Assembly (NCBI GenBank): GCA_016710095.1
Contig: JADJLL010000007.1
Location: 41,122 to 105,121, forward strand
Origin: Candidatus Eiseniibacteriota bacterium
GTDB lineage: Bacteria > Eisenbacteria > RBG-16-71-46
DNA length: 64,000 nucleotides
Reading direction: 5' to 3'
Made by a program: the position numbers and the translations under genes
Shown here: in pieces, positions 2,287 through 54,336 of the stretch
Numbering within the stretch: position 1 is the first letter of the stretch
How the letters are laid out: the number at the start of each line of letters is the position of its first letter
Notes under the pieces: generated by a model
What the model was told of the DNA's origin: nothing
Seen by the model: the letters and a program-made list of their open reading frames with translations, nothing else
Databases searched by the model: none

Positions 2287-2306
2287 GGCGCGGCGCGGAA
2301 AAGCGA

Positions 2307-2346
2307 AACGGCCGGTCGGGAGTCCCGACCGGCCGTTCGACTTTTC
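2307..2346. terminator. bidirectional rho-independent terminator between convergent genes
   Basis: 14-bp perfect stem AACGGCCGGTCGGG-AGT-CCCGACCGGCCGTT followed by CGACTTTTCG on + and an A-run on the 5' side (T-run for the minus-strand gene). Confidence 0.5.
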
Positions 2347-2357
2347 GCGGATGACGC

Positions 2358-3254
2358 TTACTTCGACTTCAGCTTGACCACCGCGGCCATGCAGAGCGTC
2401 GCGCCGTTCGACTTCACGTCGGACAGCTTCAGCTTGACCGTGCCGCCCTTCGTGTACAGCACGAGCGGAATCGCGTCGTTCTCGGTGTCCTTCGCGAGGA
2501 CTTCGCCGTCACCGTCGGTGATGGTGATGTCGATGTCGTTCGCCTGGCTGTCGGCGGCGCCGACGAAGGCGTACGGACGGTCCTCGAGATCGATGCCACC
2601 CTGCGTCAGCGTCTCGCCTTCCTTCATGATCGAGCCGATCACGCAGATCTCGTTGTCGCCGTCGTGGAACGCGGCCCAACCGAGCTTGTCGTTGATCTTC
2701 TCGCACATGCCGAGCAGACGCTCCCACGCGGCCTTCAGGTTCTTGGCCGGGACGTCGTAGCCGCCCTTGCGGAGCAGGGCGTAGGCGACGAACGAGCCGC
2801 GCGCCTTGCCGTCGACGAGCTTCATGACGACCTTGAACTTGCCGTCTTCCTTCGGGGTGAACACGACGACCGGGTTGGAATCCTTGGCGTCGTCCTTGGC
2901 GACGACGTCACCGTCGGCGTCGAGGAGGTACAGGTCCATGTCCTGCACGTCGTCGTCACCGCCGCCGATGAAGGCGTACTCGGTGCCGCCGGTGAGCGGA
3001 ATCGTGGCCGCGCCGACCTGCTTGCCTTCCTCGAGATAGGCGCCGATGAAGCAGGAGCTCTGATCGTCGAGGCCGTACTGGGTCTTGTCCGTGACCTTAC
3101 GGACGCTTTCCATCACGCGGCTCATGGCCTGGTCGAGGTACTTGCCCGGCACCCAATCCTTGGCGGAGGCGGGGGCGGCGGCGACCACGGTGGCGAGAGC
3201 GAGGGCAGCGACGACGAACAGACGGGTGAAATGGGGCTTTGAGCTGTGGAACAC
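2358..3254 (-). CDS. secreted hypothetical protein made of two tandem ~125-aa homologous domains
   Basis: GTG start preceded by AGGAGG (7-nt spacer). Signal peptide MFHSSKPHFTRLFVVAALALATVVAAAPASA. Internal duplication (CFIGAYLEEGKQ...DGDVVAKDD... vs CVIGSIMKEGET...DGEVLAKDT...). High GC3 frame. No recognisable catalytic motif. Confidence 0.6.
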   Translation of the reverse strand: MFHSSKPHFTRLFVVAALALATVVAAAPASAKDWVPGKYLDQAMSRVMESVRKVTDKTQYGLDDQSSCFIGAYLEEGKQVGAATIPLTGGTEYAFIGGGDDDVQDMDLYLLDADGDVVAKDDAKDSNPVVVFTPKEDGKFKVVMKLVDGKARGSFVAYALLRKGGYDVPAKNLKAAWERLLGMCEKINDKLGWAAFHDGDNEICVIGSIMKEGETLTQGGIDLEDRPYAFVGAADSQANDIDITITDGDGEVLAKDTENDAIPLVLYTKGGTVKLKLSDVKSNGATLCMAAVVKLKSK

Positions 3255-3583
3255 GAAGCTTCCTCCTGAGCGGATCGGCGTCCGGATCCATGGCTCGTGG
3301 GGAGCCCTGGCGGCTGGAGACGACGCATGAACGAGTGTCCGGCTGACTTTCCGAGCCCCCGGAGAGCGGAGCAGGGCACGGTGACTGGCCGGTGCACGAG
3401 CGCGGATACGCCCGCAGCGCATCTTTTCTTCCCTGAAACGTCGCCTGCGGCACGACGGTCGGCGGGCAGTGTAGTCAGAAATCGGCAGGGGTCGCACGAG
3501 GATTCATGACGTTTTTCGAACTTTGTGCGGCAAGCCGGCCGGCGCGTGCGCTCGCGAGAGGCCGTCGGCGCTGCGCCATATCA

Positions 3584-3628
3584 CCCGAAAACACGGCGCC
3601 CGCGTCCCGAGTTCCGGGGCGCGGGCGC
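3584..3628 (-). terminator. rho-independent terminator ending the apbE-rnf-kor operon
   Basis: GC-rich hairpin (GCGCCCGCG...CGCGGGCGC). On the minus strand it is followed by CGTGTTTTCGGG, immediately downstream of the korB stop. Confidence 0.5.
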
Positions 3629-3643
3629 GTGTCGAAGGCGTGG

Positions 3644-4477
3644 CTACTCGGTCGGCAGGTCCTGCTTGAGCACGGCGTCCGGCGGCGTCCATTCCTCTTC
3701 GGAAGCCGCACCGGCGGTGGCCGAGACCTCTTCCAGCGGGCGCTTGTAGATGACGCCGAGGGCGAAGCGGCCGTCGCGCACCGCGTTGATCGCGGCGCCG
3801 AGATCGGTCTTGTCGTACTCGACCGGCAGCTCGTAGCTGCGCTGCAGCAGCAGGTCCGAGTAGTTGCGCGGCTGGTACGTCACGCAGCCCGCGAGCACGT
3901 GCACGAACGAGAAGCCGGGATACTCGATCGCCTGCTTCATCATGTCGCGCATGTGCGGCATGTTGCCCGCGTGCGTGCGCGCCACGAAGCCGCAGCCCGC
4001 GCTCAGCACGAGCAGCACGGGATTGAGCGGCTGTTCGTCGCCGCCCGCGAGACCGCGGCTGCGCTTGGACTCGAGTTCGGTCGTGGGCGAAGCCTGGCCC
4101 TTCGTGAGGCCGTAGATGCCGTTGTCCATCACGATGTACGTGATGTTGATGTCGCGGCGGATGGCGTGCGGCAGGTGGCCGAGACCGATCGAGAAGCCGT
4201 CGCCGTCACCGCCGACCACGACGGTCGTCAGTTCGGGGCGCGCGGTCTTGAGCCCGCTGGCGATCGGCAGCGCGCGGCCGTGAATCGTGTTGAACGAGTA
4301 CGCCTTCACGTAGCCGGGCAGGCGGCTCGAGCAGCCGATGCCGGAGATGACCGCGAGCTTCTCGGGCGCGACGTTGAGATCGGAGAGCGCCTGGGTGAGT
4401 CCCTTGAGCACGCCGAAGTCGCCGCACCCCGAGCACCACACGGGCAGGAGTTCGGTCCGCAGATCCTTGGGCTTCAT
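3644..4477 (-). CDS. korB: 2-oxoglutarate:ferredoxin oxidoreductase beta subunit (TPP-binding)
   Basis: KorB/PorB-family TPP-binding hallmarks (CSGCGDFG, GIGCSSR, GGDGDGFSIG). AAAGGAGCGA RBS. Start ATG is adjacent to the korA stop. Confidence 0.9.
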   Translation of the reverse strand: MKPKDLRTELLPVWCSGCGDFGVLKGLTQALSDLNVAPEKLAVISGIGCSSRLPGYVKAYSFNTIHGRALPIASGLKTARPELTTVVVGGDGDGFSIGLGHLPHAIRRDINITYIVMDNGIYGLTKGQASPTTELESKRSRGLAGGDEQPLNPVLLVLSAGCGFVARTHAGNMPHMRDMMKQAIEYPGFSFVHVLAGCVTYQPRNYSDLLLQRSYELPVEYDKTDLGAAINAVRDGRFALGVIYKRPLEEVSATAGAASEEEWTPPDAVLKQDLPTE

Positions 4478-6241
4478 CTATCGCTCCTTTCGGGTCGCGG
4501 AGAGGCCGAGCATCTCGTCCAGCTCGCGCATGGACATCGGCAGGCCGCCGCTGCGCGCGAAGCTGCGCACGCCGTTCATGTCGGTGAGGCTCGAGAGGTA
4601 GCGGTGGAACTGGCCCTGGTAGCTGAGTTCGACCGTGGTGGTCTCGTCCAGGCCCTTGCGCCATTCCGTGAACGCTTCGAGCGGGAACGGATGCAGGATC
4701 TCGGGCATGAACACCCGGTACTCGGGATGCGTCTCGATCCACTCGCTGAGCATGCCGAAGCTGCTGCCCCAGGCGATGATGCCCTTGGCCGCCTTCGGGT
4801 CGCCGAACGTGCGCACCCAGCCGCGCGTGTCGGCCGCGATGGACTCGAGCTTGCGGAAGCGCTTCTCGCTCATGCGCTGGTGCACGCCGGGGTCGGCGCT
4901 CGGATTGCCGTCTTCGGTGTGCTCGATGCCGGCGGCGAGGTACGTGCCGCCCGGCGTGCCGGGCACGCGGAACGCGTTCACGGGCTGGTCCTCGGACAGC
5001 TGGAAGCGGGCCGGGGCGTCCTCGGGCGTCCAGCGCCAGCGCCGCGGCTTGTCGCGCCGGTCGGTGACGCCGTCGCGGATCTGGCGGCGCTGCGCGACGT
5101 ACGCGTCCGACAGCACGAGCACGGGCAGCTGGTAGTTCTCCGCCAGCTCGAACGCGCGGAACATGACGTCACGCGCGTGCACGACGTCGAACACGCCGAG
5201 CACGGCGCGCGGGAAGTCGCCGTGGCCGCCGTAGATCGCGTGGTAGAGGTCGGACTGCTCGGTGCGGCTCGGCATGCCCGTGGCCGGGCCGGCGCGCTGG
5301 CAGTCCACGATGACCGTCGGGATCTCGGCCATGCTGGAGAGGCCCATCATCTCGGTCATGAGCGACAGTCCCGGGCCGCTCGTCGCGGTCATGGACGGCA
5401 CGCCGCCGAAGCTGGCGCCGACGACCATGCCGAGCGCCGAGATCTCGTCCTCGGCCTGGATGACGCGGCCGCCCACGGCGGGCAGTTCGTCGATGAGCGT
5501 CTCCATGACCTCGGACGACGGCGTGATCGGGTAGCCCGCGAAGAACTCGAGCCCGGCCGACATGGCGCCGCGCGCGACGGCTTCGTTGCCCGTCTCGACG
5601 ACGAGCGGCACGCCGTGGCCCTTGAGCTGGAGCAGCTGCGGCACGTTCGGCGCTTCGTACGCCTTGCGGAACGTCGGCATGTTGCGCTCGACGAGCGCGG
5701 GCTTGTGCGAGAAGCGTTCGGCGAGCGCCTGCTGGGCGAGCGACTCGGGCCAGCCGAGCGCGCGGCAGACGAGCGCGAGCGCCATCATGTTCTTCGGCTC
5801 GCCGGCCACTTCGACGTCGCCGTCCCAAGTCGCGAACGGATGACGGAAGGCCGGCTTCTTCATCGTGCCGAGCCAGTCGGGAAGCGCGCCCGGGTCCTTC
5901 TCTTCGAGGATCAGCTGGCTTTCGTCGTGCAGGTGGAGCGAGCCCTTGAAGCGCTTGAGGTCGGAGGCGCGGAAGCACACGAGCACGTCCGTGTCTTCGC
6001 CTTCGTAGCAGATCTCGCGATCGCCGATGCGCAGCACGACGGCGGACTCGCCGCCGCGGATCTGCGGACCGTACGACTGCACGAGGATGCCGTAGAGGCC
6101 CTGGTGCGCGGCCATCTTGAGCAGGAGGTCGCCGATGAGGGCGACGCCGTCACCGCCGCTGCCGGCGATCGCGATGACGAGTGATCGCAGGGGTGTGGCT
6201 GTCGCCGAGGAGGCGGGCATCGCTTCGGTGCGCGTTTCCAT
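4478..6241 (-). CDS. korA: 2-oxoglutarate:ferredoxin oxidoreductase alpha subunit with fused N-terminal gamma domain
   Basis: N-terminal gamma-type domain (IAIAGSGGDGVALIGDLL) fused to a KorA/PorA-type alpha domain (GYPITPSSEV...). Start is 3 nt after the rnfB stop (TGAACCATGG). Confidence 0.9.
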   Translation of the reverse strand: METRTEAMPASSATATPLRSLVIAIAGSGGDGVALIGDLLLKMAAHQGLYGILVQSYGPQIRGGESAVVLRIGDREICYEGEDTDVLVCFRASDLKRFKGSLHLHDESQLILEEKDPGALPDWLGTMKKPAFRHPFATWDGDVEVAGEPKNMMALALVCRALGWPESLAQQALAERFSHKPALVERNMPTFRKAYEAPNVPQLLQLKGHGVPLVVETGNEAVARGAMSAGLEFFAGYPITPSSEVMETLIDELPAVGGRVIQAEDEISALGMVVGASFGGVPSMTATSGPGLSLMTEMMGLSSMAEIPTVIVDCQRAGPATGMPSRTEQSDLYHAIYGGHGDFPRAVLGVFDVVHARDVMFRAFELAENYQLPVLVLSDAYVAQRRQIRDGVTDRRDKPRRWRWTPEDAPARFQLSEDQPVNAFRVPGTPGGTYLAAGIEHTEDGNPSADPGVHQRMSEKRFRKLESIAADTRGWVRTFGDPKAAKGIIAWGSSFGMLSEWIETHPEYRVFMPEILHPFPLEAFTEWRKGLDETTTVELSYQGQFHRYLSSLTDMNGVRSFARSGGLPMSMRELDEMLGLSATRKER

Positions 6242-6244
6242 GGT

Positions 6245-7121
6245 TCAAGCTCCAGTCGGTTCGGCGATTTCGACCAGCTCCGGCTCGGGCGACTGCCCGA
6301 CCTTGTGCATGATCGTACTGGGACAGATGTCGGTGCAGGCCTCGCCGCAAGACGGACCGTAGGCGATGCACACCTCGTGGTCGATGAGGATCGTACGGCC
6401 GTCCCACGTGATGGCGTTGGCCGGGCACTTCGAGACGCACTTGCGGCACGTCGTGCAGCCCACCATGCAGGTGGAGCGCACCACGGACGACTTGTCCACC
6501 GCCTTGCACGAGAGCTCGATGCGCCGGGCCCGCGGGTAGAGGCGGAAGAGGTCCTTCGGGCACACCGCCACGCACACCGCGCAGCCGGTGCACTTGTCGG
6601 TGTTCACCTGCGCGATGCCGCCCGTGCCGATGAACAGCGCGTCGAACGGGCACGCGCGCACGCAGTCGCCGAGTCCGAGACAGCCGTTCTTGCACGCACG
6701 CGGGCCGCCGAAGATGAGCGCGGCCGCGCTGCAGGTCGGAATGCCGGCGTAGAGCGCTTCGTCGCGCGCGAACGCCGAGGTGCCGTGGCAGGTCATCACC
6801 ACGACGCGGTCCTCGACCCAGCCCGCGTCCTTGCCGGCCAGTTCGGCGACGGCGCGCGCGACCGGACTCGCGGCCGGGAATGCACAGGCTGGGGGAGACG
6901 TCGGCGCGTTCGACGACGGCTTCGGCGTACGCCGTGCAGCCGGCGAAGCCGCACGCGCCGCAGTTGGCCGACGGCAGCCGGTCGCGCACGCGGTCCACGA
7001 GCGGGTTGCCCGCGACCTTGAAGCGTTCCGCGGCCGCGCCGAGCGCGATGCCGAAGACGGCGCCGAGGCCGCTGAAGACGCCCAGTCCGTAGAGCGCGGT
7101 GTGCAGGGATTCGGAAGTCAT
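6245..7121 (-). CDS. rnfB: Rnf complex subunit B (Fe-S, polyferredoxin-like), with apparent 1-nt frameshift near 6870-6876
   Basis: The N-terminus (MTSESLHTALYGLGVFSGLGAVFGIALGAAAERFKV...NCGACGFAGCTAYAEAV...CIPG) is in one frame. The ferredoxin part (…ARAVAELAGKDAGWVEDRVVVMTCHGTSA...CLGLGDCVRACPFDA...CTGCAVCVAVCP...) is in the -1 frame. Removing one C in GGCCGC restores a canonical RnfB. Confidence 0.8.
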
Positions 7122-7128
7122 GGGCGCC

Positions 7129-7995
7129 TCACCGGAAGAAGTCGAGGCCGGAGAAGCCCATGAACGCGAGCGCGAACAGTCCGGCGAGCGCGAACGCGAT
7201 GGGCAGGCCTTCGAATGCCTTGGGCACGCGCGCGAGTTCCATCTTCTCGCGGGCGCACGACATCAGGAACAGCGCGAGCGCGAAGCCGAGTCCGGAGCCG
7301 AGCGCGAGCACCAGCGCTTCGATCGCCGAGACCTTGCCCTGCGCGTTCAGGAGCGGCACGGCGAGAATGATGCAGTTCGTCGTGATGAGCATGAGGTACA
7401 CGCCGAAGCTCTTGTGGAGCGCCGGGTGCGTCTTGCGCAGCATCGTGTCGAGGAACTGCACGACCGCGGCGACCGTCCCGATGAACACGAGCACCTGCAG
7501 GAAGCCCAGGTGCAGCGGCTGCAGCGCGAACGTGTCCACGGCCCAGGACGTCATCGCGGTGAAGATCATGACCGCCGTGAACGTGACGCCCATGCCGACC
7601 GCGGCGTCGCGCTTCTTGGAGACGCCGAAGAAGATGCAGAGCCCGAGGTAGCGCGTGAACACGAAGTTGTTGATGAGCGCCGACGACAGGAACAGCGTGA
7701 CGAGCGTCGCCCACGCCGTGGGGAAGACGTCGCGCGAAATCGGCGGGTCCACGACCTCGAGCTTATAGCGCTCGGTCGCGTGCAGCGCCTGCGTCGCGGT
7801 GAGCGTCACCACGCGGCCCTCGGCCTTCACGCCTTCGAGCGCCATGGGCGCGTCGGGCGCGGCGGCTTCGGCGAAGCGGAAGTTGGCGGTCGTCGCGCCC
7901 GCGGGATCGAACGGCCCGCGGAACGTGACGCGCACCTGGTTCGGCGTGCGGATCGTGACGGACTCGATCGTGTTGCCGCCGTCGGCGGCCTGCAC
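7129..7995 (-). CDS. rnfA: Rnf complex subunit A with unusual ~95-aa N-terminal extension (possible true start at 8107 via another frameshift)
   Basis: The canonical RnfA core (…LFLSSALINNFVFTRYLGLCIFFGVSKK...) is preceded in-frame by a protein-like, high-GC3 domain (TIESVTIRTPNQVRVTFRGPFDP...KLEVVDPPI). An ATG at 8107 overlaps the rnfE stop and encodes a signal-anchor-like MAERRFPSVRTALLTALAPLALVAALLLGAAAAW in the +1 frame. Confidence 0.8.
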   Translation of the reverse strand: MQAADGGNTIESVTIRTPNQVRVTFRGPFDPAGATTANFRFAEAAAPDAPMALEGVKAEGRVVTLTATQALHATERYKLEVVDPPISRDVFPTAWATLVTLFLSSALINNFVFTRYLGLCIFFGVSKKRDAAVGMGVTFTAVMIFTAMTSWAVDTFALQPLHLGFLQVLVFIGTVAAVVQFLDTMLRKTHPALHKSFGVYLMLITTNCIILAVPLLNAQGKVSAIEALVLALGSGLGFALALFLMSCAREKMELARVPKAFEGLPIAFALAGLFALAFMGFSGLDFFR

Positions 7996-8099
7996 GGATC
8001 CGGCGCCACGCAGCAGCCGCGCCGAGCAGCAGCGCCGCGACGAGCGCCAGCGGGGCGAGCGCGGTGAGCAGCGCCGTGCGGACGGAAGGGAATCGCCGC

Positions 8100-8750
8100 T
8101 CAGCCATGGTGACCTCCGGCGGCGGGCTTCGCGGTGCCGCCCGTCAGCTTGCGTTCGAGCGCGTTGAAGAACGCCATGAGCAGCGCGATGGAGAAGAAGC
8201 CGCCCGCGGGGAGCGCGAAGAAGAGCAGCGGCTTGGTCTTGAAGAGCACGATCCCGAAGAACGAGCCCGAGCCCAGCACTTCGCGCAACGCGCCGATGAC
8301 CATGAGCGCGATCATGAAGCCGAGGCCCATGCCGACGGCGTCCCAGAACGAGGGCACCAGCGGCTGGCGCGACGCGAACACTTCGAGGCGCGAGATGATG
8401 ATCGCGAACGCCACGATGAGCTTGATGTAGAGCCCGACCTGCGCGTACAGCGACGGCGTGAACGCCGCGAGCGTCATGTCGATCGCGCTCACCCAGACGG
8501 CGATGATGATCGTGTAGACCGGGATGCGCACGCGCGGATGAATGACGCCGCGCGCGATCGCGACGGTCAGGCTGGAGAGCACCTGCACCGCGAGCACGGC
8601 GACGCCGAGGATGAAGCCGTTCGCCACGGTCGTCGTGACCGCGACGGCGGGGCAGAGGCTGAGCGCCAGGCGGAACACGGGGTTCTCGCTGACGATGCCG
8701 TTGAAGAGCAGCTGCAGGGCGCCCGGGGGGCGCTCGGTGGTCTCGCTCAT
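8100..8750 (-). CDS. rnfE: Rnf complex subunit E
   Basis: MSETTERPPGALQLLFNGIVSENPVFRLALSLCPAVAVTT... is an RnfE/NqrD-family membrane protein. Its ATG overlaps the rnfG stop (ATGA). Confidence 0.85.
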   Translation of the reverse strand: MSETTERPPGALQLLFNGIVSENPVFRLALSLCPAVAVTTTVANGFILGVAVLAVQVLSSLTVAIARGVIHPRVRIPVYTIIIAVWVSAIDMTLAAFTPSLYAQVGLYIKLIVAFAIIISRLEVFASRQPLVPSFWDAVGMGLGFMIALMVIGALREVLGSGSFFGIVLFKTKPLLFFALPAGGFFSIALLMAFFNALERKLTGGTAKPAAGGHHG

Positions 8751-9667
8751 CGCGAAGCTCCTTCGCCTTCGAGCTGCGGCGCGAGCAGCGCCCAGCGGCG
8801 GCGGAAGTGATCCACGGTTCCCTTGACGCCGCGCGTCAGCGCGCGGCTCGAGATCGTGGCGCCGGTGACGGCGTAGATGGGCTTCGTGCGTTCGCGGTCC
8901 ATCAGCGTGCGCCATTCGGCCGGCGCTTCGCCGCCCGTGGACGAGGCGAACGCCGACAGCGCCGCGTGCCAGTCTTCCGGCATCGGGTCGCGCGTCACGC
9001 CGAGCGCCGCGATCTCGTCCGGCGTGCGGCCGGAGAACTGCGCGCGGAACACGGGGGTCGCGATCTCGGCGCCGAGGCCGGGATCTTCTTCGTGCTCGAG
9101 CACGCGCACGCCCTTCACCGCGAGCGACGAGTCGAGCGCCACGAAGAAGCGGATGCGGTTCTTGTAGCCGCGCGACTCACCCTCGAGCACGAAGCCCGCG
9201 AGCGCGCCGCCCTGTTTGGCGACGAACAGCCGCCCGAGCTCCTCGAGCCCGGCGGGCTCGGCCGTGTTCGCCGACTCCGCCGACTCCGCGGCGCCGGAGG
9301 CGGAGGCGACGGCCCCCGCCGTGGAAGCATGCAGGCTGCCGTCGAGCCCGAACACGAACTCGCGCGTCGGCGCGGACTCGTTGCCGTACTCCTTCGCGAG
9401 GTAGCGCACCTCGCGCTTCGGCGCGTCGAGGTACTGCCGCACTTCGGTCACCTCGGCGCCTTCGCCGAACGCGAGCATGCCGCTCACCGCGCTACGCTCG
9501 CCCGCGAGCCGGGCTTCGCGCTGGTAGCGCTCCGTGCCGACGTACACGCCGCCGAGCACGATCGCGCTCACCGCGCAGACGAGTACGAGGTTCATGGCGA
9601 TGCCGGCGATGACCTTGGGATCGGCTTTCGGACGCGGGGCGCCGTCGATGTGGACGAGGTCGCTCAT
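8747..9667 (-). CDS. rnfG: Rnf complex subunit G (FMN-binding)
   Basis: N-terminal TM anchor then an FMN-binding domain (…YAVTGATISSRALTRGVKG, the covalent-FMN Thr/Ser motif). ATGA overlap with the rnfD stop. Confidence 0.85.
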   Translation of the reverse strand: MSDLVHIDGAPRPKADPKVIAGIAMNLVLVCAVSAIVLGGVYVGTERYQREARLAGERSAVSGMLAFGEGAEVTEVRQYLDAPKREVRYLAKEYGNESAPTREFVFGLDGSLHASTAGAVASASGAAESAESANTAEPAGLEELGRLFVAKQGGALAGFVLEGESRGYKNRIRFFVALDSSLAVKGVRVLEHEEDPGLGAEIATPVFRAQFSGRTPDEIAALGVTRDPMPEDWHAALSAFASSTGGEAPAEWRTLMDRERTKPIYAVTGATISSRALTRGVKGTVDHFRRRWALLAPQLEGEGASR

Positions 9668-10647
9668 GACGGGCTCCCGGCGATGGCGGTGCGCTTCGGC
9701 CGGAACCACAGGTCGAGCGCGGGCGCCATGGCATTGGCGATCAGGATGGCGTAGCAGATGCCTTCGGGATATCCGCCGTACACGCGGATCATGCCGGTGA
9801 GCAGGCCGATCATCAGTCCGAACGCGATCTGCGCGCGCGTCGTGCTCGGCGAGGTCACGTAGTCGGTCGCCATGTAGAACGCGCCGATCCAGAAACCGCC
9901 GCTCATGAGGTGCAGCATCGGCACGCCGGTGTGCAGCGTCGAGAGTGCGACGCCCGCGAGCACGCTGAGCGGAATCGCGAGCGTGATGATGCGGCGGGCG
10001 AGCAGCGCGGCGCCGCCGATCGCGACGAGCAGGAGCGAGACTTCGCCGATCGAGCCCGGGCGGAAGCCGAGCGCGAGCGCGTTCCACAGCCCGACGGGGC
10101 TGGAGACGAGCTTCACCGCGGCTTCGAAGCCCTGCTCCTTGAGCACGGCGAGCGGCGTGGCGGTCGTGACCGCGTCGAGCGGCACCCCGAACCACGGCCG
10201 CGGCGTCGCCCAGCCCGAAGTCATGTTGAGCGGGAACGTCGCCATGAGGAACGCGCGGCCGAGCAGCGCCGGGTTGAAGAGATTGAAGCCGAGCCCGCCG
10301 AAGATCATCTTGCCGAGCCCGATCGCGAACATGGAGCCGAGGAAGGCCTGCCACGCCGGAAGGTTGGGATTGACGGTCAGCGCGAGCAGCAGCCCCGTGC
10401 ACACCGCGCTGCCGTCCATGAGCGTCGGACGGCGGCCGAGCGCCTTCTGCGAGACGAACTCGGTGAGCACCGCGCCCGCGATGGACGCGAGGATCACGAA
10501 CGCCGCGTTGATGCCGAACACGAACACGCCCCAGAGCGCGGCCGGCGCGAGCGAGCCGTTGACCCACCACATGATCTTCGAGGTGGATTCCTCGGTGTGC
10601 AGGTGCGGGCCGGGCGAGAGGACGAAGGTCGGATGGGTCTCGCTCAT
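9664..10647 (-). CDS. rnfD: Rnf complex subunit D
   Basis: MSETHPTFVLSPGPHLHTEES...GFNLFNPALLGRAFL...ATGATISS-type NqrB/RnfD membrane protein. ATGA overlap with the rnfC stop. Confidence 0.9.
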   Translation of the reverse strand: MSETHPTFVLSPGPHLHTEESTSKIMWWVNGSLAPAALWGVFVFGINAAFVILASIAGAVLTEFVSQKALGRRPTLMDGSAVCTGLLLALTVNPNLPAWQAFLGSMFAIGLGKMIFGGLGFNLFNPALLGRAFLMATFPLNMTSGWATPRPWFGVPLDAVTTATPLAVLKEQGFEAAVKLVSSPVGLWNALALGFRPGSIGEVSLLLVAIGGAALLARRIITLAIPLSVLAGVALSTLHTGVPMLHLMSGGFWIGAFYMATDYVTSPSTTRAQIAFGLMIGLLTGMIRVYGGYPEGICYAILIANAMAPALDLWFRPKRTAIAGSPS

Positions 10648-12003
10648 GACGCGCTCCTCGTGGCGGCGGCGCGCCGAAGCGCCGACTTCGCGACCTGCAT
10701 GAACTGCACGAGCGGGCGCGAGGACGGACAGACGTAGCTGCAGCAGCCGCACTCGTAGCAGTCGAGCGCGCCGTGCGGTTCGCAGTCGAGCGTGCGCCCG
10801 ACTTCGACGCGCACGGAAACCTGGTCGGGTTCGAGTCCGAGCGGGCAGGCGTCGAGGCAGCGGCCGCAACGGATGCATGCTCCGAAACCGTCCTCGAGCG
10901 GACCGCGGCCGGTGAGCATCACGAGCCCGTTCATGCCCTTGATGAGCGGCACGTCGAGGCGCGGGAGCGATCGGCCCATCATCGGACCGCCCGCGACCAT
11001 GCGGTGCGTCTCGGGCTTGATGCCGCCGCAGAACTCGACGATGTCGGCGAGCGAGGCGCCGAGCGGCGCGCGCACGTTGCGCGGCTGCACGATGCCGGGA
11101 CCCGTCACGGTGAGGATGCGGTCGAGCAGCGGCTTGCGATACCGCAGCGCGTCGTACACGGCCTGCGCGGTCGCGACGTTCTGCACGAGCACGCCGACGG
11201 CCGAAGGCAGCTGCCGTGCGGGAACGGTGCGGCCGGAGACCGCGAACACGAGCTGCTTCTCGGCGCCCTGCGGATACCGCGCGACGCACGGCACGACCTC
11301 GACCGGGATCGAACGGTCGGTCAGCGCCGCGGCCGCCTTGCCGATCGCTTCGATCGCGTCGGGCTTGTCCGATTCGACGCCGATGAGCACCTTCTTCGCT
11401 CCGGCGATCTTCGCGATCAGCACCGAGCCTTCGACGATCTCGGTCGGGTACGCGAGCATCACGCGGTAGTCCGACGTGAGGTACGGCTCGCACTCGGCGC
11501 CGTTCATGACGAGCAGGTCGACCTTGGCCGCACGCGCGAACTCGAGCTTGCGCCAGGTGGGGAAGGCCGCGCCGCCCAGCCCGACGATGCCGGCCTCACG
11601 CACGCGCGAGAGCGATTCCTCGAGCGGCAGGTTGCGCCACTCGGGATCCTCGGGGAACTCCAGCTCGGGGCCGGCGTCGACGTTCGCGCCGATTGCGAGC
11701 GACATGGCGATCGCCATGGTCGGGTGCGGGCGCTTGTCCACGGGCTTGATCTTGCCGCTGATGGGAGCGTGCAGCGGCACGCCCGTCTTGCCGCCCTCGG
11801 CGATCTTCTGGCCGCGGCGCACCATCTCGCCCTTCTTCACGCACGGCTCGGCCGGCTCGCCGAGGTGCTGCAGCAGCGGAAGCACCACCTCGGAAGGCGT
11901 GGGGAGATCCTCGATCTCACGGGAGGCGGTGGCCTCCTTGTGCGGACCGGGATGGATCCCGCCTCGCCCGAAGGTGTGCAGGGAACTCGTCGCAGTGGTC
12001 ATC
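10644..12003 (-). CDS. rnfC: Rnf complex subunit C (NADH/flavin-binding, 2x[4Fe-4S])
   Basis: RnfC hallmarks: GGIHP, LVMNGAECEPYLTSD, C-terminal CIRCGRCLDACP...CYECGCCSYVCPS. ATG is 5 nt after the apbE stop. Confidence 0.9.
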
Positions 12004-12007
12004 GCGG

Positions 12008-13033
12008 TCACCCGATGTAGTGGGTGGCCAGGCGATTCGCGATCGCGCCTTCGCCGGCGGGGCCGGTGAGGAAGGCGAGCGAGGAGCCCTCGTCCGAATC
12101 CGTTCCGGTACGCGCCAGCACGCTCGCGCTCAAGCGCGGGTTGGCCGGGCGTCCGAGCTTCGCATCGAGCAGGTGGCCGACGCGCACTCCGTCGAGCGTG
12201 GTCCACTGTTCGTAGTTGCCGCTGGTCGCGACCGCCGAGTCGCGCAGGTGGAACACGTGATCCACCTCGCCGCTCGTCGGATGAAGCACGCCGACCGCCC
12301 AACCGTCGGAGTCGTCCGACGGGCGGCCGATGCCGTACACGTTGCGGCCCACATCGACGAGGCCCGACTCGATGCCCTCGGCGCGCATGGCGGCGACCGC
12401 GCGGTCGAGCGCCCAGCCCTTGCCGATCGCGCCCAGGTCGAGCGCGGCGCCGTGCGTCGTGAGCGCGACCGTGCTCGCGGCCCGGTCGATCTTCAGGTGG
12501 CGGACGCCGGTGAGCGCGAGCGCGTCCTTCAGTTCGCGGTCCGTCGGCAGGTGCGAGCGGCCCGAACGATAGAACCCGTAGAGCCGCATGAGCGGCAGCA
12601 CGGTCGGATCCACGACGCCGTTCGAGGCGATCGCGCCGGCCTGCGCGCGTTCGAGCACTTCGATCAGGTCGTCGCTCACGCGGACGGCGCCTTCACCGGC
12701 GGCCGCGTTCACGCGGGACAGTTCGCTGTCCGCGCGGTGGACACTCATCTGGGCGTCCACGGTCGCGATGGCCGACCAGGCGCGAGCGATGGCGCGGTCC
12801 GCGACGCGGGCGTCGGGATGCTGGGCGACGAGGCGCACCCAGGTGCCGAGCGCGGCGCGGGAGGACTCGATGCGCTCGTTCGAGCGCGAGAACTGGCGGG
12901 ACAGATAAGGAGCAGTCAGGCCCGCGCCGGCCAGGAGGCCGAGGCTCAGGAGGAAACGCCGGCGGCTCAACGTTCCGGTGGGCGTGTCCTTGGGCAGCAG
13001 GGTGAGCGCACGAGCAGTCTTCTTCGCATGCAT
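12008..13033 (-). CDS. apbE: FAD:protein FMN transferase (ApbE family), Tat-signal lipoprotein-like
   Basis: RRRFLLSLGLLAGAG twin-arginine signal. ApbE-family body (…GAIGKGWALDRA…). Typical partner of RnfG/RnfD flavinylation. GGGAGGA RBS. Confidence 0.85.
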   Translation of the reverse strand: MHAKKTARALTLLPKDTPTGTLSRRRFLLSLGLLAGAGLTAPYLSRQFSRSNERIESSRAALGTWVRLVAQHPDARVADRAIARAWSAIATVDAQMSVHRADSELSRVNAAAGEGAVRVSDDLIEVLERAQAGAIASNGVVDPTVLPLMRLYGFYRSGRSHLPTDRELKDALALTGVRHLKIDRAASTVALTTHGAALDLGAIGKGWALDRAVAAMRAEGIESGLVDVGRNVYGIGRPSDDSDGWAVGVLHPTSGEVDHVFHLRDSAVATSGNYEQWTTLDGVRVGHLLDAKLGRPANPRLSASVLARTGTDSDEGSSLAFLTGPAGEGAIANRLATHYIG

Positions 13034-13190
13034 GACGCGATTCGTCCTCCCAACAGTGAACGAGTTCCTGCTTCCGTGAATTGTCTGTCGGAGTAAATCC
13101 CAAGCATAGGTTATGCAAGGGATTCAGGAGTGCCCGGCGATTCCGCCGGTTGGGAGTGGAAAACGCCGACCCTCAAGAGGAGAGAACGCG

Positions 13191-13400
13191 ATGGGCAAGC
13201 TGCCCGAATTCTATGTCGATCAAGACCTTTGCACGGAATGTGGCGACTGCATCAAGGCAGTGCCGCAGGCATTTCGGAAGGTCGAGGATGAGGAAGTCGC
13301 CGAGGTCCACACGTGGGAGCTCGAAGACACTTTCATGCCACGAGTTCAGCAAATCATGACAGATTGTCCGGGACGGGCGATCCTCTGGCGTAAGAAGTAG
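13191..13400 (+). CDS. small single-cluster ferredoxin
   Basis: 69 aa, MGKLPEFYVDQDLCTECGDCIKAVPQAF...TDCPGRAI (CxxCxxC...CP pattern). GAGGAGAG RBS. Heads the por operon and is divergent from the apbE-rnf operon. Confidence 0.65.
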   Translation: MGKLPEFYVDQDLCTECGDCIKAVPQAFRKVEDEEVAEVHTWELEDTFMPRVQQIMTDCPGRAILWRKK

Positions 13401-13407
13401 GCCGGCC

Positions 13408-14388
13408 ATGAGAACTCTCGACCCTCGCCAGATCTTCGAGCAGTCCGCGCTCGAAGTTCGTGGGGATGGGAAGGCGGGCGGTGGTTTGGTTCTGGCTTTC
13501 CAGAGCCTCGCCGCCTTGTTCTCTTCTCTTCCCAACATGCATGTCCAGGAGTGGCCGTTCTTCAGCTCCGCTCGTCGCGGCGCGAACATCCGCTCCTTCC
13601 TGCGCGTCAGCGCCAAGCCGATCGACGTGGGCTGCGAAGTGACGCGCCCCGTGATCTCGCTGCTGATGGACGAAGTGACGGGCAAGACCGTCGACTTCGC
13701 CGGCGGCGTTCCGCACGGTGGCACCTTCGTCCTCAACACGCGCCGTACGCCCGAGGAGTGCGCCAAGCACTTCCATCTGTCGGGACGCGTGATGACCGTG
13801 CCCGGTGACGACATCGGCACCCGCTACCTCAAGCACCCGATCGGCAACGTGTCGGCGTACGTCGCCATGACCGAAGCGATCGGTGGCCTCGAGTTCGAAA
13901 CCGTGGTCGGGACGTTCCTCGGCCAGCTCAAGAAGCGCCGCATTCCCGAGGTGCTGCTCGAGCGCAATCGCGAAGCGCTGCACGCCACCAAGGAGTCCAT
14001 CCAGGTCGGCGTGTTCGACGAAGCGCGGCCCGGCGATCACGCCACGACCGTCTTCACCGGTTACGGCGAGCTGCCGATCGGCGCGCAGACGCGCCTGCGT
14101 CTGTCGCAGACGAACCACACCGCCGCGTTCGCGCGCAGCGGCTTCCGTCTGCTGTTCAACGATCCGAACAAGTCGTGCACGGGCTGCTCGCACTGCATCA
14201 CGAACTGCCCCGAAGGCATCATCCGCTTCCAGCCGGACGAGGAACGCGGTGTGCTGGTGACGGGCGCGGACGTGAGCGCGTTCTGCAAGCTGTGCGGCGA
14301 GTGCATCGCCGTGTGCCCCGAGAAGCTCTTCACCGAGGGCAAGTACGAGGAAGTCTGGGACGAAACCGTGACGGAGGCCCGCTCATGA
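13408..14388 (+). CDS. porG: 2-oxoacid:ferredoxin oxidoreductase fused gamma-delta subunit (PorG + 2x[4Fe-4S] PorD)
   Basis: N-terminal gamma domain (…GDGKAGGGLVLAFQSLA…), C-terminal delta ferredoxin (CTGCSHCITNCP…CKLCGECIAVCP). ATGA overlap with the next gene. Confidence 0.85.
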   Translation: MRTLDPRQIFEQSALEVRGDGKAGGGLVLAFQSLAALFSSLPNMHVQEWPFFSSARRGANIRSFLRVSAKPIDVGCEVTRPVISLLMDEVTGKTVDFAGGVPHGGTFVLNTRRTPEECAKHFHLSGRVMTVPGDDIGTRYLKHPIGNVSAYVAMTEAIGGLEFETVVGTFLGQLKKRRIPEVLLERNREALHATKESIQVGVFDEARPGDHATTVFTGYGELPIGAQTRLRLSQTNHTAAFARSGFRLLFNDPNKSCTGCSHCITNCPEGIIRFQPDEERGVLVTGADVSAFCKLCGECIAVCPEKLFTEGKYEEVWDETVTEARS

Positions 14389-15716
14389 GCACGATCGGCA
14401 TCGAACACGGGCCGACGACGCACGTCGCGACACCGGGCGGGGAGCGGTACGACATCCTCAACCTCGAGCGCGTGAAGCAGGCCCACATCCCGTTTTATCC
14501 GAACCAGGAAGACGTGACGGCCGACGGCAACACCGCGGCGGCCATCGCCACGCTGCAGATGTGGCGCGCCCTCATCTATCCCGGCTTCCCGATCACGCCC
14601 TCGACCAAGTGGATCGAGACCGTGGCGGCGAAGGTCGGAGCCCAGAAGGGCACCAAGAAGCGCGTGAAGCTGCTCGAAGCCGAGCACGCGGTCGCCGACT
14701 ACATGGTCGGCGCCGGCGCGGCCTGCCGGGATCTCATCTTCTCGACGGCCACCAGCTCGGTCGGGCTCGATCACATGACCGAGACGACGCGCTCGCTGGG
14801 CGCTTCGGGCCTCGGAAACGTCATGATCATCAACGTCTACCGCGCGACGGCGAACTTCCCGCTCTGCATCGAGGGCGATCCGTCCGACGCGATGGCGCAC
14901 CGTGACGACGGCTTCATCCAGATCTGCGCGCGCGGCAAGCAGCAGATCTACGACACCGTGATCCAGGCGCCGTGCCTCGGCATGCACCCCGAGGTCATGA
15001 CGCCCACGATGCCGGGCTACTACGGCATCAAGGACAGCCACCGGAACTCGCGCTTCACCGTCGAGTCCGACGGCGCGATCCACGAGTTCCAGGACCGTTG
15101 GCTGCAGCCCTGCCATCTGCCGGGCACGATCAACGGCGACACCGCGATGGGCAACTGCGTCACGTCGCGGCATTTCCAGGGCTTCAAGATCAACCAGAAG
15201 CGCCGCATCGAACGCGTGCTCGACATCCTTCCGCAGATCGGGGCGGACTTCGAGAAGACGTTCGGCCGTCCGGGTCTCCGTTTCTTCGACGAGACCGCGT
15301 GGCCCGAAGCCGGTCCGGTGGACATCGCCGTCGTCGGCATGGGGCCGGATTACGGCACGTTCGAATCCGTGCGCGAGGCGTGGGCGAAGAAGAACAACGT
15401 GAGTGTCTCGGGGCTCGCCCTGCGGCTGCTCAATCCGTTCCCGCGCGACGCGTACCGCGAGAAGCTGCAGCGCGCGAAGGTCGTGCTGGTCGTGAACCAG
15501 GCGCATCACTCCGGCCGCGGTCACCTCACGCTCGACGTCGCCGATGCGCTGGCGGGCATCGAGCCGCAGCCGCGGATCGTCAGCGCGTTCGCCGGTATGG
15601 GCGGTGCGGACGTCTCCGAGGCGACCTGGGAAGCGATGCTGGACGAAGCGAAGGACGCGCTCACGACGGCGCCGCGCCAGCCCTACATGGTCTTCCACGA
15701 AGGAGCGCGGCTATGA
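14385..15716 (+). CDS. porA: 2-oxoacid (pyruvate/2-oxoisovalerate):ferredoxin oxidoreductase alpha subunit
   Basis: …GNTAAAIATLQMWRALIYPGFPITPSTKWIE… is a PorA/VorA family member. ATGA overlap with porB. Confidence 0.85.
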   Translation: MSTIGIEHGPTTHVATPGGERYDILNLERVKQAHIPFYPNQEDVTADGNTAAAIATLQMWRALIYPGFPITPSTKWIETVAAKVGAQKGTKKRVKLLEAEHAVADYMVGAGAACRDLIFSTATSSVGLDHMTETTRSLGASGLGNVMIINVYRATANFPLCIEGDPSDAMAHRDDGFIQICARGKQQIYDTVIQAPCLGMHPEVMTPTMPGYYGIKDSHRNSRFTVESDGAIHEFQDRWLQPCHLPGTINGDTAMGNCVTSRHFQGFKINQKRRIERVLDILPQIGADFEKTFGRPGLRFFDETAWPEAGPVDIAVVGMGPDYGTFESVREAWAKKNNVSVSGLALRLLNPFPRDAYREKLQRAKVVLVVNQAHHSGRGHLTLDVADALAGIEPQPRIVSAFAGMGGADVSEATWEAMLDEAKDALTTAPRQPYMVFHEGARL

Positions 15717-16723
15717 GCAGCTTCAAGGAAATCGCACTCAAGGACAGCTGTTTCCGGGCCGGCTCCACGCTGTGCCCCGGCTGCATGGAGTCGGTCGCGT
15801 TCCAGAACATCGGACGCGTCACCGACAACGGCGTGAAGACGATCTTCACGATCGGCACGTCGTGCGCCGAAGTGTCCACGCTGGCGTTCCCGAACGTCGT
15901 GGCGTGGGGACGTGGCGACGACTCGTCGGACGACTTCGGCAAGAGCTTCTCGATCCTGCACAACGTGTTCGAGTCGGCGCCCACGCTCGCGGAAGCGACG
16001 CGTGACGTGGCCGACGCGCTCATGGACTGCGGCGCTCTCGATCGCAAGGTGCAGATCATCAGCACCGGCGGCGACGGCGGCGCGTTCTCGATCGGCCTGC
16101 GCACGCTGCTGCACACGATTCATCGCCGCGCTCGCGTCACGATCGTCATTCTCGTGAACGAGATCTTCGCGAACACGGGCTTCCAGTACAGCCCGGCCAC
16201 CATGCCGTACGCGGACACGAGCACCACGCCCGCCGAAGGCGCCCCCGGCAACATGAACCCGCCGCTCGACTACATCCATCTCGCCATCGCGGCGGGAGCG
16301 GGCATGGTCGCGCAGCTGTCGCCGGCGCACGGCAAGATGTTCGTGAAGGCCATCGAGCGGTCGCTGGAAGTCGAGGGGACGGCGGTGATCTTCGTGCCGG
16401 CGCCCTGCATCAGCGGCTGGAAGTTCGAAGACGGGCAGACCGTCGAGCTCGCGCTTCTCGGCGCCCGCAGCGGCGTGTTCCCGGCCTTCACGTGGGAGCG
16501 TGGCAAGGGTGGTTCGGTGAAGGATTGCTCGATCGAGGCTTCGGAGCGCCCGGACGTCGTGGACTTCCTCGCGATGCAGCGGCGTTTCGCGCACCTCGTG
16601 CAGCGCGACAAGGTGACCGGCGAAGTGAAGCCGAAGCCGGGCCGCGAGCAGGACATCGAGAACCTGAAGGGCTGGGTGCAGGGCAACGTCGAGCGCATGT
16701 ACTCGCTCGCGAACCTCAAGTAG
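15713..16723 (+). CDS. porB: 2-oxoacid:ferredoxin oxidoreductase beta subunit (TPP-binding)
   Basis: CPGCMESVAFQNIGR…TGGDGGAFSIGLRTLLH (TPP and [4Fe-4S] motifs). GAAGGAG RBS. Confidence 0.85.
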   Translation: MSSFKEIALKDSCFRAGSTLCPGCMESVAFQNIGRVTDNGVKTIFTIGTSCAEVSTLAFPNVVAWGRGDDSSDDFGKSFSILHNVFESAPTLAEATRDVADALMDCGALDRKVQIISTGGDGGAFSIGLRTLLHTIHRRARVTIVILVNEIFANTGFQYSPATMPYADTSTTPAEGAPGNMNPPLDYIHLAIAAGAGMVAQLSPAHGKMFVKAIERSLEVEGTAVIFVPAPCISGWKFEDGQTVELALLGARSGVFPAFTWERGKGGSVKDCSIEASERPDVVDFLAMQRRFAHLVQRDKVTGEVKPKPGREQDIENLKGWVQGNVERMYSLANLK

Positions 16724-16746
16724 CCGCGCTTCAGCGAAGACACGAC

Positions 16747-16790
16747 GGGCGCCGGGGCTTCGAGCTCCGGCGCCCGTTCGCTTTCCTGTT
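16747..16790 (+). terminator. rho-independent terminator after porB
   Basis: GGGCGCCGG-loop-CCGGCGCCC 9-bp stem followed by GTTCGCTTTCCTGTTCG. Confidence 0.5.
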
Positions 16791-16823
16791 CGCGACGGTG
16801 GCGTGCGGCTAGTATCGCGCGCC

Positions 16824-27735: not shown

Positions 27736-27744
27736 GGTGAAGTG

Positions 27745-29655: not shown

Positions 29656-30050
29656 GCCGAGCCTGGGACGTGCTGGTGGTGGACGACGAAGCCGTCGTGC
29701 GCGGCGGCGTGAAGCTCGTGCTCGAGCCCGAAGGACTGGCCGTCGCGCAGGCCGCGACCGTCGCCGAGGCGCTCGCGAGCGACGCCCTGAACGAATGCCG
29801 CTTGCTGCTCTGCGACCTGATGCTGCAGGGCGAGAGCGGACTCGAGGTCGTGAGCGAGGCGCGCCGCCGCCGGCCCGCGCTGCCCATCGTGCTCATGACC
29901 GGCTATGCCACCGACGACAACGCCGCCCTCGGCGCGCAGTCCGGTGCGACCGATTTCCTCGCGAAGCCTTTCGATGATGTCGAGCTGTTGGACCAGGTAC
30001 GGCGTGTCCTCGGGGATGCCCATGCCGACGAGAAGGAGGGATCGTCATGA
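29652..30050 (+). CDS. single-domain CheY-like response regulator
   Basis: GTGA overlap with the kinase stop. VLVVDDE…D-L-M-L receiver with conserved Asp (LLLCDLMLQG) and Lys (FLAKPF). Confidence 0.75.
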   Translation: MSRAWDVLVVDDEAVVRGGVKLVLEPEGLAVAQAATVAEALASDALNECRLLLCDLMLQGESGLEVVSEARRRRPALPIVLMTGYATDDNAALGAQSGATDFLAKPFDDVELLDQVRRVLGDAHADEKEGSS

Positions 30051-30102
30051 CCGCGCTTCTGGTGGTCGTGCTGTGTGTGTTGTTCCTGGGATCGAACTCG
30101 GC

Positions 30103-38129: not shown

Positions 38130-38139
38130 AAGAGAGCAC

Positions 38140-54238: not shown

Positions 54239-54336
54239 CGAGCCGCACTCCTAACCTGCCGCGCACGAAATCCAAGCCTGCGCGGCAAGCGGGACGGCAT
54301 TTCGATCACACATCCGGAGCCCACACGAGGAACTGC

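Follow-up and report, generated by a model that had tools for sequence, protein, structure and literature searches.

An island of 13 genes in a 64,000-nucleotide stretch of a Candidatus Eiseniibacteriota genome (contig JADJLL010000007.1, assembly GCA_016710095.1; the whole stretch is hereafter called the window) encodes an Rnf complex together with the flavin transferase ApbE, a small ferredoxin and two 2-oxoacid:ferredoxin oxidoreductases (OFORs). We consider it reasonably probable that this island is a ferredoxin-cycling energy module belonging to the standard equipment of Candidatus Eisenbacteria, where the OFORs would reduce ferredoxin, and Rnf would pass the electrons to NAD+ while pumping ions. 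New are the phylum-wide, operon-tight combination of rnfCDGEAB with a two-subunit OFOR, the divergently placed ferredoxin and clade-specific OFOR, the putative operator between the two units, and the extensions of RnfA and RnfG.

Gene content and layout of the island

The G+C content of the window is about 70%, and hence raw lists of open reading frames (ORFs) are swamped by spurious frames. Therefore, the genes were called from the G+C content of third codon positions (GC3 frame plot) and then checked with Pfam and NCBIfam, which confirmed 13 of the 13 island genes at the coordinates given below. The minus strand carries apbE-rnfCDGEAB followed by a two-subunit KorAB-type OFOR; on the plus strand, the gene of a 69-aa ferredoxin is followed by the second OFOR (gamma-delta, alpha, beta).

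3587..3628, minus strand: terminator-like GC-rich hairpin followed by GUGUUUUC, just 3' of the stop codon of the korB-like gene (fold)
3644..4477, minus strand: OFOR beta subunit ("korB"), 277 aa, thiamine pyrophosphate-binding; Pfam TPP_enzyme_C (1.4e-28), PFO_beta_C
4478..6241, minus strand: OFOR fused gamma and alpha subunits ("korA"), 587 aa; Pfam POR (residues 29-196), POR_N (225-455)
6245..7121, minus strand: rnfB, membrane-anchored polyferredoxin; Pfam FeS domain (PF04060) and Fer4
7129..8107, minus strand: rnfA, with a signal peptide and an immunoglobulin-like (Ig-like) N-terminal domain; Pfam Rnf-Nqr (1.2e-48), weak Big_5
8100..8750, minus strand: rnfE, 216 aa; Pfam Rnf-Nqr (4.5e-50), NCBIfam RsxE subfamily (202, cut-off 184)
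8747..9667, minus strand: rnfG, 306 aa, enlarged, with an FMN-attachment motif; Pfam FMN_bind
9664..10647, minus strand: rnfD, 327 aa; Pfam NQR2_RnfD_RnfE (8e-100), NCBIfam rnfD (277.7, cut-off 207)
10644..12002, minus strand: rnfC, NADH/FMN/Fe-S subunit, 452 aa; Pfam RnfC_N, Complex1_51K, SLBB, Fer4
12008..13033, minus strand: apbE, FAD:protein FMN transferase with a Tat-like signal (RRRFLLSLGLLAGAG); Pfam ApbE (7.6e-64)
13034..13190, no strand: divergent intergenic (promoter) region, 157 nt (sequence)
13191..13400, plus strand: fdx, 69-aa single-cluster [4Fe-4S] ferredoxin (CxxCxxC...CP); Pfam Fer4_13, Fer4_15
13408..14388, plus strand: second OFOR, fused gamma and delta subunits, 326 aa; Pfam POR and a 2x Fer4 dicluster
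14385..15716, plus strand: second OFOR, alpha subunit, 443 aa; Pfam POR_N, PFOR_II
15713..16723, plus strand: second OFOR, beta subunit, 336 aa; Pfam TPP_enzyme_C
16744..16786, plus strand: terminator-like hairpin with a 17-bp stem, followed by UUCGCUUUCC (fold)

Both units are tightly packed. ATGA overlaps join rnfC/D, rnfD/G, rnfG/E, gamma-delta/alpha and alpha/beta, and rnfE and rnfA overlap by 8 nt; the gaps in the minus-strand unit are 5 nt (apbE/rnfC), 7 nt (rnfA/rnfB), 3 nt (rnfB/korA) and 0 nt (korA/korB). At the end of each unit there is a T-rich tract behind a GC-rich hairpin. The segment 3575-3643 of the minus strand folds with -42.1 kcal/mol (z = -4.69; none of 200 shuffles is as stable), and the segment 16724-16800, covering the hairpin after the plus-strand beta gene, with -47.6 kcal/mol (z = -4.90). 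The korB-side hairpin was not listed by a simple terminator consensus scan, its tract having fewer than five T in eight positions. Given this spacing, co-transcription of the minus-strand genes would be the simplest reading.

Thus, the gene map and the family-level identities proposed in the first-pass annotation are borne out by GC3, Pfam and NCBIfam, as is the divergent layout by the gene map and the operon-like packing by the short rnfB-to-korA gaps of related loci (see below). As a whole, that interpretation holds in part: the families, the packing, the divergence and the palindrome between the units stand, whereas the substrates, a role in the tricarboxylic acid (TCA) cycle or its reverse (rTCA), and the claim that the arrangement is uncommon do not.

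A complete Rnf complex

Along with ApbE, the island encodes all six Rnf subunits (C, D, G, E, A and B), and the assignment to the Rnf complex is solid; its predicted type is the complete RnfCDGEAB of Clostridium and Acetobacterium. RnfC, for which the start codon was checked against the sequence, scores 461.5 with the NCBIfam rnfC model (cut-off 246). RnfG and RnfA are under their NCBIfam cut-offs (RnfG, 76.6 vs. 102; RnfA, 206 vs. 229), the former because of insertions and the latter because of its N-terminal extension; despite these scores, both match the solved RnfG and RnfA chains. Among solved structures, RnfA, RnfD and RnfG are most similar to the ferredoxin:NAD+ oxidoreductases of C. 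tetanomorphum (7zc6) and A. woodii (9eri).

The FMN-attachment motifs are retained as well. In RnfG, AVTGATISS aligns to AITGATITS of 7zc6_G, and its TGATISS part also to the motif of 9eri_G; in RnfD, DAVTTATPL aligns to DGVTTATPL of 7zc6_D, the motif being of the same type in C. tetanomorphum and A. woodii. RnfG is approximately 100 aa longer than the solved RnfG chains (189-237 aa), the surplus sequence lying at about residues 45-140 and 220-258, around the conserved FMN-binding core. In RnfA, C158 and C246 (numbering of P0001, a 99% identical relative) are invariant in an alignment of 18 related sequences. This pair would correspond to the cysteines that bind an Fe-S centre within the membrane in solved Rnf and Nqr. 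Besides the N-terminal FeS domain, RnfB contains about four cysteine motifs of the Fer4 type, and after frame correction (removal of an extra G, see below) the 291-aa protein passes the equivalog NF005503 over its full length (292.5, cut-off 252).

Two OFORs of generic assignment

Both OFORs have the full set of catalytic domains according to Pfam. The OFOR behind rnfB has a two-subunit architecture, a gamma-alpha fusion plus beta, with no delta (Fer4) domain found by Pfam in either chain. KorB reaches the NCBIfam PorB_KorB subfamily (265.5, cut-off 261.9) and no equivalog cut-off; KorA, the translation of which shows a YPITPSS motif, scores 468 with the generic OAFO_sf model, just under the cut-off of 482.75. 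With the 2-oxoglutarate synthase equivalogs the scores are 209 (cut-off 579) for alpha and 162 (cut-off 364) for beta. The best solved relative of KorA is the 2-oxoglutarate:ferredoxin oxidoreductase (OGOR) of Magnetococcus marinus (6n2n_A, 3.3e-88, full length), with 300 bits vs. 152-182 bits to the broad-specificity Sulfolobus enzymes. A literature search on the specificity residues of the M. marinus enzyme yielded nothing usable for substrate assignment. Placed at the generic subfamily level only, this enzyme does not support the 2-oxoglutarate label ("kor") that it had been given.

The plus-strand unit starts with fdx, which in relatives is conserved from the same ATG and has AGGAG 7 nt upstream. 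The gamma-delta subunit of the second OFOR scores 79.6 with PorC_KorC (cut-off 81.1) and 67 with PorC (cut-off 270), and has a weak match to the delta subunit of oxalate oxidoreductase, which has the same fusion. For the alpha subunit, the best equivalog is PorA_Arch (134.5, cut-off 550) and the best match in the Protein Data Bank (PDB) is 9bt4_B (4.9e-18); for the beta subunit, PorB gives 130 (cut-off 405) and the PDB matches are 9bt4_C (3.7e-27) and oxalate oxidoreductase 5c4i_C (1.7e-24). The best 120 database relatives of the alpha subunit are all at least 70% identical to it, and among them every one named by NCBI is a "hypothetical protein" of an Eisenbacteria-type metagenome-assembled genome (MAG). 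On these scores, far under all named-enzyme cut-offs, the second OFOR is assigned to a clade-specific family that belongs to the OFOR superfamily only, and the pyruvate label ("por") is not supported. Candidate substrates of the two enzymes are 2-oxoglutarate, pyruvate or amino acid-derived oxoacids.

Directly after the second OFOR, at 16803-18935 on the plus strand, there is an ORF of 710 aa with a good codon-position signal and no Pfam match.

Conservation of the arrangement

A scan of a genome collection with an alignment of extended RnfA relatives yielded 80 loci, to which the 13 proteins of the window were compared by tblastn. Nearly all of the loci most similar to the window bear the title Candidatus Eisenbacteria; beyond approximately 55% identity, they come mostly from MAGs of Rhodocyclales and Desulfobacterota. 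The order PorB-PorA-PorGD-Fdx <> ApbE-RnfCDGEAB-KorA-KorB was observed in nearly every Eisenbacteria locus that is long enough, down to about 50-60% identity, and the full arrangement is kept in about 40 species-level genomes. Between rnfB and korA, the median of the extrapolated gaps is about 8 nt, and 46 of the 50 loci have a gap of at most 30 nt.

In MAGs of Sulfuritalea and Sterolibacterium (L061, L064, L065, L066, L077, L079), a two-subunit OFOR and a YfhL ferredoxin are encoded directly upstream of apbE-rnfCDGEAB; the OFOR at 1734-4945 of L061 reaches 640 bits with OAFO_sf. As this Rhodocyclales cluster of OFOR, ferredoxin and rnf is arranged independently, a functional link is favoured over accidental adjacency. 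Thus, the supposed rarity of Rnf joined with KorAB is not supported: the arrangement is the rule in the phylum, has an analogue in Rhodocyclales, and kor/rnf clusters have been published (PMC6315080).

The divergent intergenic region

The region between apbE and fdx contains two conserved elements.

13096..13124, no strand: palindrome AATCCCAAGCATAGGTTATGCAAGGGATT, 29 bp, imperfect, probable operator (alignment, conservation)
13134..13159, plus strand: block CCGGCGATTCCGCCGG-TTGGGAGTGG, upstream of the fdx ribosome-binding site (alignment)

The core of the palindrome, GCATAGGTTATGC (GCAT-N5-ATGC), lies at 13104-13116, almost exactly mid-way in the 157-nt region. In the intergenic alignment of nine relatives, GCATAG.T.ATGC.AGG is invariant, while the surroundings have diverged. 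The phylum-wide form of the site is (T/A)(T/A)GCAT-N5-ATGC(A/G)A, and its central pentamer occurs in at least five versions. GCAT-N5-ATGC was found in 25 of the 37 Eisenbacteria fdx<>apbE intergenic regions (6.8 kb in total), compared to 25 occurrences in 1.18 Mb elsewhere (0.021 per kb), which is an approximately 175-fold enrichment; it occurs once in the 64-kb window, and the extended form TTGCAT-N5-ATGCAA is found nowhere else in the loci. A 5-nt arm alone is at the level of chance, and it is the conservation across relatives that makes the palindrome more than a chance occurrence. The idea of a shared control element, put forward for this palindrome from the single sequence, is thereby strengthened, and (T)TGCAT-N5-ATGCA(A) is probably an operator for both units.

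The palindrome could instead be an RNA element, that is, a 5'-UTR (untranslated region) hairpin or a riboswitch of the fdx-OFOR transcript. It does fold as a hairpin on either strand, and in close relatives there is a conserved block behind it that contains a 6-bp stem. Yet the arms are invariant while the five central bases vary, the flanks do not covary (A.A in the window, A.G in L005, T-A in L006), and the GCAT/ATGC core provides four base pairs only. The Rfam scan of the intergenic region gave chance-level matches only (E = 0.96 and 2.2), both within the fdx coding sequence, and a conserved 5'-UTR hairpin downstream of the palindrome was rejected, as the 26 loci fold no better than shuffles (mean z = -0.7; three below -1.5). 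Since the arms are invariant, the centre is variable and the flanks do not covary, a dimeric DNA-binding protein fits better than an RNA hairpin, and we regard the RNA element as distinctly unlikely.

A comparison, at title level only, of TTGCAT-N5-ATGCAA to published operators gave no match. The nearest known case is AphA of Vibrio, where the half-sites have the opposite arrangement. The block CCGGCGATTCCGCCGG-TTGGGAGTGG is nearly invariant in the eight closest relatives and not beyond them, and may represent an element of the promoter or the 5'-UTR that is specific to this clade.

Frame breaks in rnfA and rnfB

The reading frames of the Rnf subunits in the window are uninterrupted except for those of rnfA and rnfB. 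In the latter, an additional G at about 6863 interrupts the frame between the N-terminal FeS domain and the Fer4 domains, so that PF04060 is read in the frame of the ATG at 7121 and Fer4 in the frame that ends at 6245. The former is split by a 2-nt deletion at 8017/8018; as it stands, the ORF spans 7129-7995 with a GTG start, and the signal peptide is encoded in the other frame, from the ATG at 8107. Both breaks, as well as the extended RnfA and RnfG, had been overlooked in the first-pass annotation.

Two references were used for the breaks, a metagenome contig with 99.3% identity (L001) and a genome with 91% identity (L003), and both indels are seen against both of them. The contig L001 is intact at rnfA and rnfB, and RnfB is intact (291 aa) in L002, too. 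Segmentation with a GC3 hidden Markov model puts the breaks at the same positions (rnfB, 6863/6864). In total, five genes in the window are broken in this manner: an S9 peptidase (about 658), rnfB (6863), rnfA (8017/8018), CstA (42360-42402) and an NTP-transferase/GlmU-like gene (56064-56069). Pfam profile coordinates run seamlessly across each of the five breaks, the frame-corrected proteins are 93-95% identical to those of L003, and the codon-position G+C signal persists downstream of the breaks.

The window also contains, at 38100-39950, about 1.8 kb of approximately 80% G+C with a strong skew of G over C and poly-G runs that reach about 17 nt; it holds no credible ORF. This stretch lies just upstream of a tRNA-Ala gene (39976-40051) and may represent either a spacer of low complexity or an artefact of the assembly.

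Two explanations of the breaks were weighed. If the Rnf operon were truly decaying, the frameshifts would be real and the island a relic in this strain; in favour of this, rnfA and rnfB have two uncompensated indels within 1.2 kb in comparison to both the 99.3% and the 91% identical relatives. However, three unrelated genes of the window, those of the S9 peptidase, CstA and the NTP-transferase, have breaks of this kind as well, the poly-G stretch also points to assembly quality, and both the codon-position signal and the 93-95% protein identity continue beyond the breaks. Decay therefore seems to us very improbable, and programmed or otherwise biological frameshifting was judged unlikely too, as three unrelated genes share the defect. 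Because these genes are broken likewise, relatives are intact and identity persists downstream, the breaks in rnfA and rnfB are most likely indel errors of the assembly, not biology.

The N-terminal domain of RnfA

In the clade, RnfA consists of a signal peptide, a domain of approximately 90 aa and the RnfA core. The relatives are 295-341 aa long, and P0001 is intact with 326 aa. In alignments to the solved RnfA chains, the match to the core begins at residue 2 of each chain, leaving an extension of 134 aa with no counterpart there; hence, this extension is structurally unprecedented. It is encoded at 7594-8107 of the minus strand and is Ig-like, of the Big_5 or S-layer type. For residues 48-128, the AlphaFold2 model shows an all-beta domain (pLDDT, the per-residue confidence score, 82-91), which in Foldseek matches Ig-like domains of two S-layer proteins, Sap and SbsC, with a root-mean-square deviation of 1.5-1.7 A over about 82 residues. 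The extension also occurs in MAGs of Desulfobacterales, Syntrophus and Desulfarculales, with signal or lipoprotein leaders (lipobox-type in Desulfobacterales), and in MAGs of Sterolibacterium and Sulfuritalea, with no leader.

Function, direction of electron flow and alternatives

If the island is a ferredoxin-cycling module, ApbE would mature RnfG and RnfD by flavin transfer. Both OFORs would oxidatively decarboxylate 2-oxoacids to acyl-CoA and hand the electrons to the small 69-aa ferredoxin, from which RnfB would accept them. Rnf would then deliver the electrons to NAD+ at RnfC and export Na+ or H+, and thus low-potential electrons would become NADH and ion-motive force. A putative dimeric DNA-binding protein at the palindrome would probably switch both units together. 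The chain would be reversible in principle. The forward direction, from oxoacid through ferredoxin and Rnf to NADH and an ion gradient, is favoured, as the Rnf belongs to the clostridial/acetogen type, many peptidases and CstA are encoded in the vicinity, and there is no CO2-fixation gene nearby. The neighbouring S9 and M3 peptidases and CstA hint at peptide or amino acid catabolism as the context.

Several observations weigh against this reading. The sequence does not fix the direction of electron flow, and neither OFOR reaches any substrate-specific NCBIfam equivalog cut-off. Four loci (L016, L017, L019, L020) have no OFOR after rnfB and one (L051) has a distant one only, while all five retain fdx, the second OFOR and apbE-rnf. 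Hence, the link between Rnf and the OFOR is not obligatory, and the rnf-OFOR fusion has been lost or replaced in some Eisenbacteria lineages. No transcription-factor gene is obviously linked to the island. A sigma-70 consensus scan of 2300-17500 gave no site, and as no promoter consensus was recognised, co-transcription and the transcription starts are derived from spacing only. If the frame breaks were real, the Rnf of this strain would be defective. Finally, our literature search turned up no data on expression, biochemistry or physiology for any Eisenbacterium.

The module could also run in reverse, for biosynthesis: an ion gradient would drive the NADH-dependent reduction of ferredoxin, and the OFORs would serve as 2-oxoglutarate and pyruvate synthases that assimilate CO2 in the rTCA cycle, the reversed oxidative TCA cycle or anaplerosis. 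The closest solved relative of KorA, 6n2n, is the rTCA 2-oxoglutarate synthase of M. marinus; rnf genes are found within kor-containing rTCA clusters of tubeworm symbionts and Thioflavicoccus (PMC6315080, PMC11636981); and Rnf is reversible in the nitrogen-fixation-associated enzyme 8ahx. Similarity to 6n2n, however, fixes neither the direction nor the substrate. Among the approximately 45 ORFs of the 64-kb window, Pfam revealed no rTCA marker, including ATP-citrate lyase, the citryl-CoA enzymes and fumarate reductase, and the neighbours are peptidases, the CstA transporter, surface proteins and housekeeping genes, so the TCA or rTCA role proposed at first is not supported. Moreover, RnfD has 214.7 and 199.8 bits to the forward-running clostridial and acetogen enzymes vs. 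166.1 to that of A. vinelandii, and RnfA has 172.7 and 170 vs. 164.1 bits. We thus consider the reverse mode unlikely.

Another alternative concerns the carrier: the delta-less KorAB could bind RnfB as its missing ferredoxin domain, forming an OFOR-Rnf supercomplex that would move electrons from a 2-oxoacid to NAD+ with no free ferredoxin, and Fdx would then serve the second OFOR only. This would agree with the korA start 3 nt past the rnfB stop and the similarly short gaps in the related loci, with the Fer4 delta domain being absent from KorAB and present in the second OFOR, which adjoins fdx, and with the many cluster motifs of RnfB. The argument is nevertheless purely inferential. The two-subunit OFORs of Sulfolobus, Hydrogenobacter and Magnetococcus use soluble ferredoxins, the Rhodocyclales OFOR is upstream of apbE, apart from rnfB, and has its own YfhL ferredoxin, and some Eisenbacteria have no OFOR behind rnfB. 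We therefore give direct docking a very small probability. A broader proposal would combine it with other features: a distinct Rnf subtype, defined by the Ig-like domain of RnfA and the enlarged RnfG (the RnfA extension being shared with some Desulfobacterota and Rhodocyclales), would be hard-wired in Eisenbacteria to a delta-less OFOR that docks on RnfB, yielding a membrane-bound, ion-pumping 2-oxoacid:NAD+ oxidoreductase supercomplex co-regulated through a dedicated operator with an OFOR of a new substrate class. In this full form, the proposal is speculative and quite improbable. The forward-running module with a free ferredoxin thus remains the reading that we prefer.

Neighbouring genes

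Two upstream flanking genes, encoding a PPC-domain protein and an S9 peptidase, are syntenic in the closest relatives (tblastn). At 25811-31194 of the plus strand, an Fer4_11 iron-sulfur protein and an NrfD-type membrane subunit look like a quinone-interacting redox module; next come a histidine kinase with a HAMP domain, a receiver on its own and a second receiver, to which a GCV_H-like domain of the lipoyl/biotinyl type is fused. A segment of about 2.1 kb with 75% G+C (52182-54320) is given no coding frame by the GC3 model.

Significance

Candidatus Eisenbacteria are a phylum with no cultured members that is often found in soil, groundwater and sludge, and their energy metabolism has hardly been described; in the literature we found only passing mentions of their Rnf or OFORs and no description of the island. 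As one of the most conserved multi-gene features of Candidatus Eisenbacteria, it implies that low-potential ferredoxin from 2-oxoacid oxidation may be central to the bioenergetics of the lineage. It also provides several handles: an operator motif with which the regulator and its regulon can be sought, an OFOR particular to this clade that annotation pipelines leave as "hypothetical", and an Rnf variant with a predicted external Ig-like domain of RnfA that is explained by no solved structure. Known biochemistry is not overturned; the Rnf/OFOR theme is extended to a new phylum with new structural accessories.

Comparison with known systems

In anaerobes, it is well established that Rnf is coupled to OFORs that reduce ferredoxin; the island is a lineage-specific variant of this energy-conversion theme and does not represent a system of a new kind. 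The Rnf complexes of Clostridium tetanomorphum and Acetobacterium woodii (7zc6, 9eri) have the same six subunits in the same order, rnfCDGEAB, the same FMN-attachment motifs in RnfG and RnfD, and a long RnfB of the polyferredoxin type. Unlike these systems, the operon of the island has apbE in front of the rnf genes and an OFOR behind them, and unlike all solved RnfA and NqrE, the RnfA of the window has a signal peptide and a predicted extracytoplasmic Ig-like domain.

For the first OFOR, the same layout of gamma-alpha plus beta with no delta is found in the M. marinus OGOR (6n2n) and the Sulfolobus tokodaii OFOR (5b46, 5b48); the KorAB genes differ in being packed directly behind rnfB and in scoring far under every named equivalog. 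The second OFOR shares domains I, II, III, V and VI with PFOR/VOR (9bt4) and oxalate oxidoreductase (5c4i), and the latter has the same split into gamma-delta, alpha and beta, the small subunit of 5c4i also being a gamma-delta fusion. In contrast to these enzymes, the similarity is remote (E-values of 1e-18 to 1e-27), with equivalog scores at a quarter to a third of the cut-offs.

The clusters of Sulfuritalea and Sterolibacterium contain the same Rnf subtype, including the N-terminally extended RnfA, beside a two-subunit OFOR and a ferredoxin. There, however, the OFOR is upstream of rnf, not downstream, and is 28% (alpha) and 43% (beta) identical to that of the window; the ferredoxin is of the 2x[4Fe-4S] YfhL type, there is no second OFOR, and the RnfA extension has no signal peptide. 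In the symbionts of Riftia and Escarpia and in Thioflavicoccus mobilis, rnf, flx-hdr and pnt are embedded in rTCA clusters with kor, and the authors propose that rnf clustered with kor supplies ferredoxin (PMC6315080). Those clusters comprise a four-subunit korABCD, ATP-citrate lyase, other rTCA genes and rnf in the order rnfABCDGE, whereas the island has no rTCA genes, is packed like an operon and contains a two-subunit OFOR.

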